From the UHGV virus genome UHGV-0127965: DNA of 37,909 nucleotides. One strand, given 5' to 3'. Under the pieces are notes generated by a model, which ran no database searches, was not told where the DNA came from, and worked only from the letters and a program-made list of their open reading frames with translations. Of this stretch, positions 3,005 through 34,246 are shown in pieces; the first letter of the stretch is position 1; the number at the start of each line of letters is the position of its first letter. This DNA comes from a virus. The translations under genes were made by a program, and so were the position numbers.

Positions 3005-3301
3005 TCAGTCATTACTGATAGCGCCATAGCGTGAGCGGTAATTACGCAGGCGCGGGTCGATATATTCAGGGAAGTGGGTATATGTGGCTTTGCGTAATGG
3101 TCGGATTGATGTTTCGTTTATTCGGTCTTTTTCCTGTTTTTCTGCGAGTTGTATATCGCGTCGGTACTTCCGTTCTGCTTTTGTTTCTGGTGGCAGAGCA
3201 AGAAACGCGCCGAGATTATTCTTGATACTTTCCAGCACCTCCGATACGGAATTGCCGGAACAGCGGCGCGGGTCATCCGCACCATACAGAGGCGCTGGCA
3301 T
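3005..3301 (-). CDS. Hypothetical protein, 98 aa
   Basis: ATG with AGGAG RBS; in the early operon. Confidence 0.5.
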
Positions 3302-3803: not shown

Positions 3804-4277
3804 CTAGAACGGAATATCCGAATCGTCGAAGTTCATAGGTGGTTCGCTGTGATCCCCCTGCTGCTGAGGTTGCTGTCTTTGTTGCTGACCGCTATTTCGC
3901 TGAGGAGAAGACTGTTCATTGCCTCCTTGCTTGCCACCAAGCATTTGCATGGTTCCACCAACGCCCACGATGACTTCGGTAGTGAACCGATCCTGTCCGC
4001 TTTGATCCTGCCATTTTCTTGTCCGCAATTTGCCTTCAAGATAAACCTCAGAGCCTTTTCGCAGATATTCGCTGGCAATTTCTGCCAGTTTCCCGCTCAT
4101 TACCACACGGTGCCACTCCGTCTGCTCCTTTTGCTCTCCAGTTTGCTTATCACGCCATTGTTCTGACGTAGCAACTGTAAGGTTTGCAAATGCCGTTCCT
4201 GATGGTGAATATCTGATTTCTGGATCATGCCCAAGGCGACCAATAATGATCACCTTATTTATCCCGCGAGAACTCAT
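3804..4277 (-). CDS. ssb: Single-stranded DNA-binding protein
   Basis: [18 protein letters not shown]-fold N-terminus, Gln/Gly-rich linker and acidic DDSDIPF tail; start taken at the ATG with a GAGGTGGAG RBS rather than the track's upstream GTG. Confidence 0.9.
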
Positions 4278-4741
4278 TTGCTCCACCTCTTGCCAGTTTT
4301 TATGTTGCTTATAATTGATTGAGATACACCCATGTCTTTTGCTATCTTGTACTGACTCTCTTTTTCAGAGAGTCTTTTCCTAATTTCTATAACCTGCCAC
4401 TCTGTTAATTTTGCACCATGATGAGCATGACCTTTTTTGGCTCCACGATGCCTTCCTTTTGCTATCTTGTCGTCCATGTTTTCTTGCGCGCTACCTAAAA
4501 AGAGATGTTCAGGATTAACGCAGCATGGGTTATCGCATTTGTGGCAAACCATCTTCCCAGATGGGATGGGGGAGTGATAAAGCTCAAAAGCAACCCGATG
4601 AGAAAGCATTGTTACGCCAAAGGCTACAAATTTTGTGTATCCTCCTTTGTTTTTTGAATAGGTAGACTCCCAGCAACCTGTTGTTTCATTAACTTTGTAG
4701 CTGGACTCGAATCTTTTAATAATTCCGTCCAAGTGAGACAT
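4274..4741 (-). CDS. HNH homing-type endonuclease (HNH_3-like with C-terminal HTH)
   Basis: [18 protein letters not shown]...N HNH core; abuts the recombinase stop and the ssb start with no intergenic spacer. Confidence 0.75.
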
Positions 4742-5449
4742 TTATGCCGCCTGTTTTAGTTCGTTAACTCTGATGCTCATTACCTGAACGCATTTAGCCT
4801 GCGCCTCCTCGTTGCCAGCCATTAATTGCCAGTCACGCTGATAACGCTCGATGAGTTTTTTCTTGTCAGTTTCTGTTGACGCATAATCGCTGAAGTCTTT
4901 CAGGATTTGTTCGCAGTCAACCGATGGAGATTTCTGGTTGATATTTTCTGGTGATGGTTTGTTATCTGATGCTGGGATTGCCCATCCCGGAAGCGATGGA
5001 GGGAGCCAGTAAAATCCTGTTCCATCTTTCAGTTTTGCCCTGTGCCATCCCTGCTTTTTATCGAGAGATGTTTGTGCGAAACCTTCCTCAAGGTTATACA
5101 GATACCGACCGATTCCCCACTGAACGGCAGCGCGCTTCATTGCACCGGAACGACCACCTTTGACGGCTTCTACCTGCGTGTTTTCAGCAGCATCCCATTT
5201 GGTTACCCATTCGGAATCAATCTTGATTGATATGCCGCATTCAACTCCGCCGTTGTTGGGAATATCGCGGTATTCATTGCGCCATCCTGCTTTGCCGCAA
5301 ACATCGTCCAGGCGTTTCATGATTGCCCGGTTCGTGACATAAGCCAGCACCATAGCCCACACCTTGCCATCGCGTGTTTTACCGCTTTGCTGTATTCGCC
5401 ATTCGATATCTTCAGGGCTGAATGGCTCATCGAATTTATTCAAATCCAT
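4742..5449 (-). CDS. Rad52/22-family single-strand annealing protein (Sak-like recombinase)
   Basis: 235 aa; resembles Rad52-like recombinases of enterobacterial prophages (from memory); sits where lambda bet or P22 erf would be; GAGGTG RBS. Confidence 0.65.
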   Translation of the reverse strand: MDLNKFDEPFSPEDIEWRIQQSGKTRDGKVWAMVLAYVTNRAIMKRLDDVCGKAGWRNEYRDIPNNGGVECGISIKIDSEWVTKWDAAENTQVEAVKGGRSGAMKRAAVQWGIGRYLYNLEEGFAQTSLDKKQGWHRAKLKDGTGFYWLPPSLPGWAIPASDNKPSPENINQKSPSVDCEQILKDFSDYASTETDKKKLIERYQRDWQLMAGNEEAQAKCVQVMSIRVNELKQAA

Positions 5450-5457
5450 AATTCACC

Positions 5458-5646
5458 TCAGAATGGTAATTCGGATGGGGAGGAAAGAAATTCGCGCTCA
5501 TTCATGCGCTCTCTTTGTGCTTGCCATAAACAAAGTTGTTTCTTTGATTTATCTCCCGCTTTACGCCAGTAACGAGCCTCAGCAATGTGATATTCTCTTT
5601 TTAATCGACTTAACTCTGGAGTTTTCGCCAGCTCTACCGGAATCAT
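5458..5646 (-). CDS. Hypothetical small protein, 62 aa
   Basis: ORF whose ATG overlaps the stop of the Kil-like gene; function unknown (positional analogue of P22 arf). Confidence 0.4.
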   Translation of the reverse strand: MIPVELAKTPELSRLKREYHIAEARYWRKAGDKSKKQLCLWQAQRERMNEREFLSSPSELPF

Positions 5647-5756
5647 TTAGACCTCCATTTTCTGTAGGCTTCGACGGCCTCACGAAACATCTTTTCATCG
5701 CCAATAAAAGTGGCGATAGTGAATTTAGTCTGAATAGCCATAAGTGTTTTATCCAT
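5643..5756 (-). CDS. kil: Kil-like host-killing peptide, 37 aa
   Basis: Not in the ORF track. MDKTLMAIQTKFTIATFIGDEKMFREAVEAYRKW matches my memory of lambda Kil; AGGAG RBS. Confidence 0.65.
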   Translation of the reverse strand: MDKTLMAIQTKFTIATFIGDEKMFREAVEAYRKWRSK

Positions 5757-5895
5757 TTTTTGGAACTCCTAGCTGATTAAGTACGTCGATGAGTCGTTTC
5801 CATCCGTCACGTAATTTACGGGTGATTCGTTCAAGTAAAGATTCATTTAATTGGAAGGCACCCATGCGAGCGCCTCCCGCGATTGCGTAAATCAT
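5749..5895 (-). CDS. cIII: cIII-like protease inhibitor, 48 aa
   Basis: Not in the ORF track. Core ESLLERITRKLRDGWKRLIDVLNQLGVPKNG closely matches lambda CIII. Confidence 0.8.
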   Translation of the reverse strand: MIYAIAGGARMGAFQLNESLLERITRKLRDGWKRLIDVLNQLGVPKNG

Positions 5896-5919
5896 GGGTG
5901 GTTCCTTATGTTGGTTTTA

Positions 5920-6888
5920 TTAGTAGGTTATTTTTGTTGCGAATACTTCGCCTTTTACGATGGCTATTATGATATTTTTAGCAACATCTTCTGATGCGCC
6001 AACCTTGATAAGGTCAGCAAGTATTTTGTTATTTACTTCTTTCCGGTGAGCTTTATCCTTTGCTCTACACTCTTCTTCTTCCTTGATTCTTTTTTCTTCT
6101 GCTATTCTGGCTTGCTCTTTTGCTTCAGCCTCGCGCCGGATTCGTTCAGCCTCCTCCTGTGCTTTTCGGCGTTCTGCTTCAATTGCCGCCTGCTTTTCTC
6201 TTTCAGCTCGTTCTGCTGCCTCTTTTGCTTCGCGCTGTGCTCGTTGCTCGGCTTCAATGCGTTCACGCTCTGCACGTTCCGCTGCGGCCTTAGCTTCTGC
6301 TTCTCGCCTTGCTGCTGCTTCAATTTCGGCTTTTGCCTTTGCTTCGGCTTCAGCTCTGGCTTTCTCTTCAGCTTCTCTTTTTAAGCGTTCTTCATGCTCT
6401 CGCTTTTCCTGCTCAGCTTTGAGTCTTGCCTCTTCTCTTTGGCGGTCAAATTCGCGATCCATCAAAATCGCTATTTCATGGTCAGACTCAATTTGCTTTG
6501 CGAGAGCTTCAGCTGCTGCCTTAGCTTCTTCTTCGGCTTTAATCCGCGCCTGTTCTTCCTCATAATCAGTAAGAGGCTGGCGCGCCTTGGCTTTCAGTTC
6601 ATCAAGGCGATCACGCACTGTCTTGCGGTTGGCATCAATTAGCTTTGGAATTTCCTTAAGTTCAGCAACAAGGTCTTTGCCAAGACCATCGAGATATGTT
6701 TTCGTCTGCGCAACTTTATACGCCAGAGAAGCGATCTCCTTTCTGCCCTTTGCCGTTGTGATATCAGGCACAAAGGACATAACTTCACGTTCAACCTTTT
6801 GAAGGATTTCTTCAATCTGGTCGGCAGACTGAAATACAGTCATTGCATTTGCTTTTTCAATAACAACTAAATCTGTTACTTCACTCAT
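5920..6888 (-). CDS. Coiled-coil protein with long E/A/K/R low-complexity repeat, 322 aa
   Basis: GGAGG RBS; structured N-terminal 100 aa then about 180 aa of AEAKA/EEKAR repeats; function unknown. Confidence 0.6.
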   Translation of the reverse strand: MSEVTDLVVIEKANAMTVFQSADQIEEILQKVEREVMSFVPDITTAKGRKEIASLAYKVAQTKTYLDGLGKDLVAELKEIPKLIDANRKTVRDRLDELKAKARQPLTDYEEEQARIKAEEEAKAAAEALAKQIESDHEIAILMDREFDRQREEARLKAEQEKREHEERLKREAEEKARAEAEAKAKAEIEAAARREAEAKAAAERAERERIEAEQRAQREAKEAAERAEREKQAAIEAERRKAQEEAERIRREAEAKEQARIAEEKRIKEEEECRAKDKAHRKEVNNKILADLIKVGASEDVAKNIIIAIVKGEVFATKITY

Positions 6889-6900
6889 ATATCCTCCATC

Positions 6901-6927
6901 AAAAAAATTGCCCTCACATTAGAGGGC
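6901..6927 (-). terminator. tL1-like intrinsic terminator inside the pL operon
   Basis: Minus-strand hairpin GCCCTC-N6-GAGGGC followed by AAT7; lies after the first post-N gene and before the rest of the operon, consistent with N-dependent readthrough. Confidence 0.6.
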
Positions 6928-7031
6928 AAAGAAGATTTCCAATAATCAGAACAAGTCGGCTCCTGTTTAGTTACGAGCGACATTGCTCCGTGTATTCACT
7001 CGTTGGAATGAATACACAGTGCTTATTTGTA

Positions 7032-7502
7032 CTAATAAAATACCCAATTTTCTGTTTCTTGGTTGTGTCCAAAGTTATATTCAATATCTGGTGTTGATGT
7101 ATCAATATTCTTCATCCCATCAACAAGAGTTGATACAACAGCCAAATCTTGTTTGATTCTCATTAAATGGTATTTCTTCCGGCGCAATAAACTTTCAATG
7201 GCAAGTTTCTTCGTTGGGAATGCAAAAGATCTTTCTGCATTTTTTGCTACTTTCTTAATTGCATATCTATTTCTCTTTTGTTTCCATTCCTGTAACCACT
7301 GATTTGGTGCTGGTTTAAAATTAACAATCCAATGCGCAGGAACCAACCATGCATAATGCTCTGTCTGATGAAAAGCTATATATTGAAGTGCGAATATTTT
7401 GATTCCATCTTCTTCAACTGTCGCCTGGAATCTCCAGAAAACAGGCATTCCATCATGTTCAGTTTCTGATTCAGGAAAAGGTACGCTCCATGATTTTGTC
7501 AT
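7032..7502 (-). CDS. Hypothetical AT-rich cargo protein, 156 aa
   Basis: GAGGTGAG RBS; markedly AT-rich compared with neighbours; sits where lambda ral/sieB lie; no family recognised. Confidence 0.55.
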   Translation of the reverse strand: MTKSWSVPFPESETEHDGMPVFWRFQATVEEDGIKIFALQYIAFHQTEHYAWLVPAHWIVNFKPAPNQWLQEWKQKRNRYAIKKVAKNAERSFAFPTKKLAIESLLRRKKYHLMRIKQDLAVVSTLVDGMKNIDTSTPDIEYNFGHNQETENWVFY

Positions 7503-7510
7503 ATCTCACC

Positions 7511-7837
7511 TCAAATAAGTGGCTTGCTGCCTAATTTCATTTTCTGGCGACCAACACAAGTCACACCCATTTCACTGCGTGGCTTGCTGTACCATGTGCG
7601 CTGATTCTTGCGCTCAATACGTTGCAGGTTGCTTTCAATCTGTTCGTGGTATTCAGCCAGCACCGTAAGGTCTATCGGATTCAGTGCGCTTTCTACTCGT
7701 GATTTCGGTTTGTGATTCAGCGAGAGAATAGGGCGGTTAACTGGTTTTGCGCTTACCCCAACCAACAGGGGATTTGCTGCTTTCCATTGAGCCTGTTTCT
7801 CTGCGCGACGTTCGCGGCGGCGTGTTTGTGCATCCAT
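7511..7837 (-). CDS. N: Antitermination protein N (lambda type)
   Basis: MDAQTRRRERRAEKQAQWKAANPLLVGVSAKPVNRPILSL... is essentially lambda N, including the arginine-rich boxB-binding motif. Confidence 0.95.
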   Translation of the reverse strand: MDAQTRRRERRAEKQAQWKAANPLLVGVSAKPVNRPILSLNHKPKSRVESALNPIDLTVLAEYHEQIESNLQRIERKNQRTWYSKPRSEMGVTCVGRQKMKLGSKPLI

Positions 7838-8298: not shown

Positions 8299-9651
<1,353 letters not shown>

Positions 9652-33733: not shown

Positions 33734-33919
33734 ATGACCATAGAAGAACGTCTGAACAACATTGAGTTAAACCAAACCCTGCTTGACCAGCGCCTTTCAG
33801 ATCTTGAGCTTAAAGATCTTGATGCGCAAATATCAGAAGCAGAAGCCAAGCTCTCCAGCTTAAACCACCGTAAGAAGCAAATCCGCAATAGAATTACTCA
33901 GGGACGCGGAAGTTGTTGA
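33734..33919 (+). CDS. Hypothetical coiled-coil protein, about 61 aa
   Basis: ATG at 33734 (AGGA RBS) or 33725; opposite orientation to its neighbours. Confidence 0.35.
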   Translation: MTIEERLNNIELNQTLLDQRLSDLELKDLDAQISEAEAKLSSLNHRKKQIRNRITQGRGSC

Positions 33920-33928
33920 AATCATAGT

Positions 33929-34246
33929 CTATTTTTTCTCAGAGCTCATATTGTAATAGGTGGTATAAATAGAGATTGATTTCTGACATGCTTCAAGAAA
34001 TTGCTGCGGAGTCATCCCAAGCCTTGCTTGCTCTGTAGTAAGGAATCTCTGTAAGAATTCATTCCCACCCGGCATGTTTGTAGATTCTTGGAATATTGCC
34101 ATTTGTTTGATTGCACCACACATACCAGCCATTTTCGAAGCTATCATGAGGCCTTGTATTTCATCAAAACTGCTATCGTCTGATTTTGTTTCTGCGTTAG
34201 CTATGCTCGAGAGACACAGGAGCAATAGGATAGCGATACGTTTCAT
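33929..34246 (-). CDS. Secreted periplasmic protein, 105 aa
   Basis: Signal peptide MKRIAILLLLCLSSIANA; its ATG overlaps the TGA of the Mnt-like gene (ATGA coupling); AT-rich. Confidence 0.5.
   Translation of the reverse strand: MKRIAILLLLCLSSIANAETKSDDSSFDEIQGLMIASKMAGMCGAIKQMAIFQESTNMPGGNEFLQRFLTTEQARLGMTPQQFLEACQKSISIYTTYYNMSSEKK

Follow-up and report, generated by a model that had tools for sequence, protein, structure and literature searches.

A two-ended protein with a long charged helix encoded beside phage recombination genes: a tentative tether of the PHROG 1376 family, probably mislabelled as coiled coil and as TolA

The virus genome UHGV-0127965, a stretch of 37,909 nucleotides (nt) whose whole length is called here the window, carries at positions 5920-6888 of its minus strand an open reading frame (ORF) for a 322-amino-acid (aa) protein, more than a third of which consists of a run dominated by glutamate, alanine, lysine and arginine. 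The gene lies in the early left operon, just upstream of cIII and not far from the phage recombination genes, which raises the question of what a protein of such unusual composition does at this place. The evidence assembled below identifies it as a member of a large, already catalogued family, PHROG 1376, and is compatible with a two-ended tether working with the phage recombination module, a reading that we favour tentatively.

The ORF starts with ATG and encodes 322 aa followed by a stop codon. The gene itself is defined by two features:

5920-6888, minus strand: coding sequence of the Sf6 gp33-like / PHROG 1376 protein (phrog_1376 match, identity to Sf6 gene 33, pN/pS of 0.20-0.30)
6893-6897, minus strand: ribosome-binding site GGAGG, 4 nt before the ATG, read directly off the sequence

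The profile phrog_1376, labelled as being of unknown function, matches the protein end to end (E = 7.1e-109, residues 1-322 against positions 1-362 of 362), and the protein is 99.5% identical to that of gene 33 of Shigella phage Sf6, annotated as 'similar to phage D3 gene Orf53', from which it differs by point substitutions only. The gene is also present in phages HK633, mEp213, mEp234 and IME10 and in Stx1a-converting phages, and the window also resembles Escherichia phage Huey (98.7% over 2.2 kb). It is carried by 530 of 5426 complete E. coli genomes (about 10%), where its usual label is 'cell envelope biogenesis protein TolA'. A phmmer search with residues 1-165 against 1.84 billion representative proteins returned 5025 clusters at E <= 0.001 and 3574 at E <= 1e-10, with family proteins typically of 290-390 aa. 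All of ten distant phage homologues, from Pseudomonas, Sinorhizobium, Serratia, Shewanella, Cobetia, Vibrio and Iodobacter phages, match PHROG 1376 end to end; a search for related loci seeded with a distant member (P0189) gave only two loci. Across 73 distinct close alleles the ratio of nonsynonymous to synonymous polymorphism (pN/pS) is 0.20 in the N-terminal domain and 0.30 in the charged region, meaning that the protein is under purifying selection, repeats included. The ORF is thus a real gene under selection, which belongs to a phage family known, and uncharacterised, since D3 and Sf6 were sequenced, and it is no novelty of the window. A plasmid origin of the family was considered and rejected, since only 25 of 72,556 plasmid records match and these are phage-like, mostly phage-sized and non-mobilizable.

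Searches of the window protein against Pfam, NCBIfam and PADLOC found no meaningful family and no catalytic one, none of 64 diverse family members matched any Pfam family, and searches of PDB sequences, whether started from the protein or from the family profile, returned low-complexity noise only. No functional study was found in the literature on Sf6 gp33, or on TolA-like proteins of lambdoid phages or beside recombinases.

The initial annotation of this DNA had described an ordinary N-terminal part followed by about 180 aa of charged, alanine-rich sequence, placed between a post-N cargo gene and cIII, and had seen nothing of the kind at the equivalent place in lambda or P22. This description stands: the charged part measures about 178 aa when counted from about residue 108, the gene is flanked by a 156-aa ORF (7032-7502) and by cIII (5749-5895), and the occupants of the slot are ea10 (122 aa) upstream of cIII in lambda and gene 17 (103 aa) upstream of c3 in P22, to which the family bears no resemblance (hhalign probabilities of 0.08% for Ea10 and 0.5% for P22 gp17). 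The element is unusual with respect to these two phages; it is nevertheless the same gene as that of Sf6, and it recurs in about one tenth of complete E. coli genomes. Two findings that the initial annotation had named as capable of overturning its view did not emerge: no homology to a structural protein, or to one of solved structure, appeared in the Pfam, PDB sequence and Foldseek searches, and among close relatives the ORF is interrupted, by frameshift, in only 2 of 80.

The organization of the protein was derived from two family alignments, one of 64 and one of 89 members, both headed by the window protein, and from structure models. It comprises four parts:

6544-6888, minus strand: residues 1-115, N-terminal helical head (family alignments)
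6439-6543, minus strand: residues 116-150, start of the long helix, with the conserved amphipathic motif IESDHEIAILMDREFDR (family alignments and full-length model)
6034-6438, minus strand: residues 151-285, E/A/K/R-rich segment of variable sequence and length (composition, charge statistics, model confidence above 90)
5920-6033, minus strand: residues 286-322 and the stop codon, C-terminal knob (kept in all full-length members; phrog_1376 coverage; model)

In both alignments the head has five invariant residues (R49, K63, G70, K71 and R88) and nine nearly invariant ones (F19, D42, G48, K78, K82, D85, R103, P105 and L106). The amphipathic motif corresponds to residues 134-150, with the family consensus ExDHExALLxNxxFDR, and the knob, of about 40 aa, has the consensus GxxExxAKxxVxAIxxGxIxxxxIxY, ends with IxY and is preceded by a READxxH motif. 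The composition of residues 1-110 is ordinary; residues 151-285 contain 30% E, 26% A, 18% R and 12% K, these four accounting for 86% of the segment. AlphaFold2 run with the family alignment produced a model with a mean predicted local distance difference test score (pLDDT) of 83.5, in which one continuous helix spans residues 81-295, with pLDDT above 90 in 151-285, and the knob forms a helix at 300-311 followed by an extended tail. The head modelled alone reached a pLDDT of 90.6, with helices at 12-20, 22-37 and 46-119. Foldseek found no PDB match at E <= 0.001, and a viral structure library returned, beyond generic helices, family members only. The isoelectric point of the whole protein is 5.4, the charged part has a net charge of -2, and no transmembrane segment was found (maximum Kyte-Doolittle mean over 19 residues of 1.31, at residue 293), the N-terminus being polar. 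These properties mark the protein as a cytoplasmic one without a recognisable catalytic domain. Alignments and models together show or predict the same plan in every family member, that is, a small head studded with basic residues, an amphipathic segment, a variable E/A/K/R helix and a knob of about 40 aa.

The nature of the charged helix is central to any functional proposal. It had initially been labelled a coiled coil, a label that is probably wrong, because residues 151-285 are poor in hydrophobic residues at a/d positions and lack the 3.5-residue hydrophobic periodicity of classical coiled coils. Hydrophobic residues occupy only 0.12-0.25 of the best heptad a/d positions, and the 3.5-residue hydrophobic power is reached by 662 of 1000 shuffled sequences, indicating no periodicity; with alanine counted as hydrophobic the signal becomes borderline (56 of 1000 shuffles). 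What the segment displays instead, besides its high E/K/R content, is an excess of opposite charges and a depletion of like charges at spacing i,i+4. There are 51 pairs of the former against 24.3 +/- 3.7 in shuffles (z = 7.2), and 4 of the latter against 23.8 expected (z = -5.2), while the charges repeat about every 8 residues, a periodicity that 18 of 2000 shuffles reach. The opposite-charge excess exceeds z = 3 in 42 of 63 relatives, with spacers of 47 to 134 aa and a family median z of 3.9. Residues 151-285 therefore carry the signature of a charged single alpha-helix (SAH) of the ER/K type, the motif class found in myosin VI/X, caldesmon and INCENP, and are predicted to act as a spacer; the AlphaFold2 helix at 81-295 would fit a monomer and an oligomer alike. 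An antiparallel, SMC-like hairpin was also considered and is unlikely because a one-sided deletion of 77 aa and arbitrary spacer lengths are tolerated. A role of the segment as a DNA mimic was rejected, the charged region being nearly neutral.

Length variation of this spacer had been thought possible in view of the imperfect DNA repeats underlying it, and the two copies of one such repeat are relevant here:

6508-6534, no strand: direct repeat D1, copy 1, 27 nt, 89% identical to copy 2, at one end of the 231-nt deletion
6277-6303, no strand: direct repeat D1, copy 2, 231 nt (77 codons) from copy 1

The repeats do exist, if weakly: Tandem Repeats Finder reported a single array of period 6 (GCTTCT) with 61% matches and a score of 36, and families of direct repeats of 27-37 nt with 67-89% identity occur within the gene. 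That they can drive length change is borne out by a 245-aa allele (P0010 and many sister clusters; locus L096), found on at least 24 contigs and in 26 index blocks, which corresponds to one in-frame deletion of 231 nt (gene nt 373-603, window 6286-6516) with its junction inside the imperfect direct repeat GAAGCTAAGGC(A/C)GCAGC(T/G)GAA. Such events are nonetheless rare on short time scales, as 78 of the 80 closest viral contigs encode exactly 322 aa and the other two are the frameshifted ones. Over larger distances, Klebsiella versions measure 221-262 aa, and in the Pseudomonas clade most proteins have 354 aa, the variants ranging between 273 and 401 aa. Spacer length accounts for the differences.

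The same codon repeats leave the alternative frames free of stops, which can mislead gene callers. The plus-strand ORFs 6046-6384 and 6083-6565, opposite the charged repeats, are by-products of the GAA/GCN codon repeats and not genes, and in Pseudomonas relatives stop-free alternative frames make the downstream recombinase ORF seem to reach into the family gene (28 ORFs of annealing proteins). Truncated forms were also observed. In an E. coli prophage (P0070), residues 1-80 (window 6649-6888) are fused in frame to the Abc2 C-terminus (window 3005-3301) by a natural deletion that took out cIII, kil, the recombinase gene and SSB, the sign of a prophage in decay. P0114 and P0007 are further truncated fusions, and P0003 is frameshifted.

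The timing of expression is suggested by the region immediately upstream of the gene, where two features are recognised:

6889-7022, minus strand: leader, homologue of the lambda ral-ea10 spacer encoding the LPR1 small RNA (alignment with lambda)
6901-6929, minus strand: intrinsic terminator hairpin (TTGCCCTC-TAATGT-GAGGGCAA) followed by a T7 tract, homologue of lambda tL2a (terminator scan, lambda alignment)

The leader is identical to lambda 33911-34045 at 128 of 134 bases (95.5%), and the terminator keeps its stem intact with two loop bases changed; tL2A is also annotated in the Sf6 record. In lambda the ral-ea10 spacer encodes the Hfq-dependent small RNA LPR1, which ends at tL2a and is reported to raise DnaN translation (bioRxiv 10.1101/2024.10.31.621285). 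An Rfam scan of 5700-7600 found nothing, the LPR1 element being absent from Rfam 15. Because the tL2a leader is intact upstream, the gene sits exactly in the lambda ea10 slot and is an early gene, reached only when pL transcription antiterminated by N reads through tL2a.

The second line of evidence for function comes from gene order, which was surveyed in the 80 closest viral contigs (the E. coli clade) and in 80 contigs of the clade of Pseudomonas phage JBD44 gp65. When the two clades are pooled, 156 of 160 loci have a gene for a single-strand annealing protein (SSAP) downstream, distributed among the Pfam families ERF, Rad52, RecT (Bet-type included) and Sak4-type AAA_24. In the E. coli clade the SSAP gene follows at 470-915 nt in 77 of 80 contigs (ERF 37, Rad52 32, RecT 4, Sak4 4), the remaining three stopping at a contig edge, and in the Pseudomonas clade it is the very next gene in 79 of 80 (ERF 41, Bet 38). 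A recombination gene is likewise nearby in 10 of 12 diverse annotated phages, this window included: an ERF-type protein in JBD44, phiLM21 and Cruim01, GamL-Bet-Exo in a Klebsiella phage, RecE-Bet and then RdgC in PhiPLPE, exonuclease VIII with Bet in Eta and Shewanella 1/41, a Sak4-like ATPase in Vibrio phage Seahorse, and a putative exonuclease in Cobetia phage Carin1. In phages of Pseudomonas, Sinorhizobium, Iodobacter, Shewanella and Serratia, which have no cIII or kil, the family gene directly abuts the recombination genes. Among enterobacterial phages, gene copies 98-100% identical (loci L015-L094 and L097) precede, after cIII-kil, each of the four recombinase families, a case of module swapping at a fixed mosaic joint. 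Where the recombinase is RecT, a Sipho_Gp157 gene comes with it (L019, 7541-8029).

The place upstream of SSAP genes has a precedent in Firmicutes phages, where it holds Mu Gam-like, Gp157, DUF1351 or DUF2483 genes that were judged functionally analogous (PMC8093625). The family gene co-occurs with Abc2 (window 3005-3301), with GamL and with genuine Sipho_Gp157, so it is not simply a substitute for any of them. Similarity to Gp157 was not detected either: hhalign of the family against a Gp157 alignment gave a probability of 0.2%, with a profile that was shallow (all homologues of Sfi21 gp157 being at least 85% identical), comparison with Sfi21 gp157 alone was negative, and the viral structure library gave no Gp157 hit. 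PF05565 (Gp157) matched neither the window protein nor any of 64 relatives, and the same proteins gave no hit to DUF1351 or DUF2483 at E <= 0.01, these two having been looked for by Pfam search only. The ORF131 of ul36, located upstream of the Sak recombinase gene, showed no similarity to the family.

Two end domains joined by a stiff helix have a shape that is typical of adaptors and tethers. In the reading that we tentatively favour, the protein would be a non-enzymatic, two-ended tether whose head and knob each bind a partner, held apart by the stiff charged helix (about 135 aa, or roughly 20 nm in the 322-aa allele), and which, judging from gene order, would assist the phage recombination module, its target being a substrate or a host factor that the different systems have in common. 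The same protein precedes four unrelated SSAP families, which is why the partner is probably something common to these systems and not a given recombinase; the candidates are DNA ends, single-stranded DNA or DNA coated with SSB, and host factors of replication or repair. The conserved stripe of lysines and arginines in the head would be the likeliest contact for nucleic acid or for an acidic partner. A more far-reaching version, which we regard as doubtful, would make PHROG 1376 an unrecognised and widespread accessory factor of recombination in phages of Proteobacteria. In that version the protein is a leash in which the SAH sets the reach, the basic head binds DNA or SSB, and the knob brings in, or else blocks, a host factor of replication, repair or defence, whichever of the four recombinase families is present. 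If true, the leash would correspond, on the Gram-negative side, to the uncharacterised genes Gp157, DUF1351 and DUF2483, and no functional ER/K spacer protein would have been described in a phage before it.

Several points weigh against the tether. Its binding partners are putative, homology having pointed to none. Phage gene order is modular, and adjacency may reflect expression timing only; moreover, lambda and P22 have unrelated genes in the slot (ea10 and gene 17, the latter for counter-exclusion), which also fits an accessory or anti-defence role. Enterobacterial phages have cIII and kil between the family gene and the SSAP gene and the mosaic joints fall there, from which it follows that the gene travels with cIII-kil and not with a particular recombinase. 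No SSAP was recognised among the neighbours in Vibrio 1.139.A and Cobetia Carin1, the latter having only a putative exonuclease about 1.5 kb from the family gene. Regarding the helix, the predicted tether may be an oligomer, and an alanine-based coiled coil for residues 151-285 retains some probability.

Some of these points bring other explanations into play. The protein could be a protector of recombination or replication intermediates which, from the 'Gam slot', inhibits or decoys a host nuclease or a defence system other than RecBCD. The genes found upstream of SSAP genes are typically end-protection or nuclease-inhibitor genes (lambda gam; the Mu Gam-like, Gp157 and DUF1351 genes of Firmicutes phages, PMC8093625; Sfi21), gene 17, which occupies this position upstream of c3 in P22, serves counter-exclusion, and the family gene is dispensable enough that 2 of 80 relatives carry a frameshifted copy and lambda has ea10 instead. 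Co-occurrence with Abc2, GamL and Gp157 implies that any target would differ from theirs. Such a role nevertheless appears rather unlikely, as there is no similarity to a known anti-defence or nuclease-inhibitor family (the Gp157 comparison, PADLOC and Pfam giving nothing), the net charge of -2 in the charged region speaks against DNA mimicry, and a conservation so broad and stable (more than 3500 clusters, with invariant residues) is unusual for fast-evolving anti-defence genes. The joint inheritance with cIII and kil, on the other hand, would suit a host-takeover factor that disables or relocates a host machine unrelated to recombination, in the manner of cIII, an inhibitor of FtsH, and Kil, an inhibitor of FtsZ. 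Enterobacterial phages inherit the three genes as a unit while the recombinase module is swapped, and expression is early and follows N antitermination only. This explanation is improbable given that phages of five other host groups (Pseudomonas, Sinorhizobium, Iodobacter, Shewanella and Serratia) lack cIII and kil and have the gene abutting recombination genes, and that host-specific takeover proteins are rarely conserved over phages of alpha-, beta- and gamma-proteobacteria.

The shape of the protein can also be read differently. Plasmid KfrA consists of a small N-terminal domain and a long, alanine-rich charged helix, and a DNA-binding scaffold of this type, with the head bound to phage DNA and the long helix assembled into a filament or bridge that keeps genomes in order during replication or recombination, would explain both the shared overall plan and the invariant or conserved K/R-rich positions found about every seven residues along the head helix (49, 63, 70/71, 78, 82, 85 and 88). 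We hold it to be quite improbable: neither the window protein nor 64 relatives match KfrA_N or a helix-turn-helix family in Pfam, residues 151-285 have no heptad pattern to drive the assembly of filaments or coiled coils, and plasmids hardly ever carry a member of the family (25 of 72,556 records). Finally, database labels such as 'cell envelope biogenesis protein TolA', 'colicin import membrane protein', 'putative tail-fiber protein' and 'fibrinogen binding protein' would make it a TolA-type envelope protein, in line with most records, or a virion or tail-fibre structural protein, in line with a few, an idea with next to no credibility. There is no signal peptide and no membrane anchor, Pfam and NCBIfam find no TolA domain in the window protein (nor does Pfam in 64 relatives), the likeness is one of composition in the E/A/K helix, and the gene stands in the early left operon and not among late genes. 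The automatic 'TolA' annotation is due to the long helix rich in A, E and K; TolA identity was refuted by the lack of both the N-terminal anchor and the C-terminal TolA domain III. The labels 'coiled-coil' and 'TolA' are probably both wrong for this protein, and the tether remains the reading that we prefer.

The surroundings of the gene in the window follow the order N, orf156, tL2a, the family gene, cIII, kil, a 62-aa ORF, a Rad52-like SSAP gene, an HNH gene, SSB, a 159-aa ORF and Abc2. The neighbours that were assigned are the following, with the strand given where it was recorded:

8299-8775, minus strand: ORF with a hydrophobic stretch at its N-terminus; overlaps a cI-like repressor gene (8700-9332) at the 3' end of the latter
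7511-7837: N antiterminator gene (Pfam N36)
7032-7502, minus strand: 156-aa ORF downstream of N (PHROG 1636, unknown function, E = 5e-112)
5749-5895: cIII (Pfam Lambda_CIII, E = 2.9e-22)
5458-5646, minus strand: 62-aa ORF between kil and the recombinase gene, HK97 gp42-like (phrog_1723, labelled 'recombinase')
4742-5449: Rad52-type annealing protein
4274-4741, minus strand: HNH_3 endonuclease ORF between the Rad52-type gene and SSB, with a 13-nt overlap with the SSB gene
3005-3301: Abc2

The 156-aa ORF has no Pfam match and also occurs in L096, where it adjoins the 245-aa allele. The 62-aa ORF sits where P22 has Arf, a small cofactor of Erf, and is a possible Arf analogue. The HNH_3 ORF is missing at the equivalent place in Sf6 (L002) and in L096 and present in L098, and looks like a free-standing, polymorphic insertion of the homing type. 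The ORF at 8299-8775, downstream of the repressor gene, has an equivalent in Huey labelled PagP and may be an accessory gene expressed in the lysogen (moron).

The family merits attention for its size (thousands of clusters, and about one in ten complete E. coli genomes), for having no Pfam model, for being systematically mislabelled as TolA, and for keeping, with four different recombinase families, an unusually constant place beside recombination genes. Should it prove a general helper or protector of phage recombination, it would bear on the making of mosaic phage genomes and on the transfer of recombineering between hosts. Its practical value at present is a correction of annotation: the protein is neither TolA nor a tail fibre, and it probably does not form a coiled coil.

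Comparison with known systems places the protein among several that resemble it in part. With TolA it shares a long helix rich in A, E and K, as in TolA domain II, from which it is set apart as a cytoplasmic product of a phage early gene that lacks the anchor and the C-terminal TolA domain. With KfrA of IncP plasmids it has in common a small domain at the N-terminus and, behind it, a long charged helix rich in alanine; unlike KfrA, the family has an additional C-terminal knob, belongs to phages and not to plasmids, and is devoid of KfrA_N. Lambda Ea10 and P22 gp17 occupy the same slot upstream of cIII or c3 and are unrelated proteins, of 122 and 103 aa. Lambda Gam and the Mu Gam-like, Sipho_Gp157, DUF1351 and DUF2483 proteins have the same position relative to SSAP genes of several families; with Gp157 there is no similarity of sequence or fold, and the family accompanies Gp157, GamL and Abc2 rather than replacing them. 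The charged segment resembles ER/K SAH spacers in being rich in E, K and R, poor in hydrophobic residues, paired in charge at i,i+4, located between two small domains and tolerant of length change; it differs in being unusually rich in alanine (26%), in that its monomeric state is a prediction, and in its setting, a bacteriophage early protein, in which to our knowledge such spacers have not been described before. The closest counterparts are Sf6 gp33 and D3 Orf53, the former standing in the same order tL2A - gene 33 - cIII - kil, and beyond them the PHROG 1376 proteins of Pseudomonas, Vibrio, Klebsiella, Iodobacter, Sinorhizobium, Serratia and Shewanella phages, which have the same architecture.

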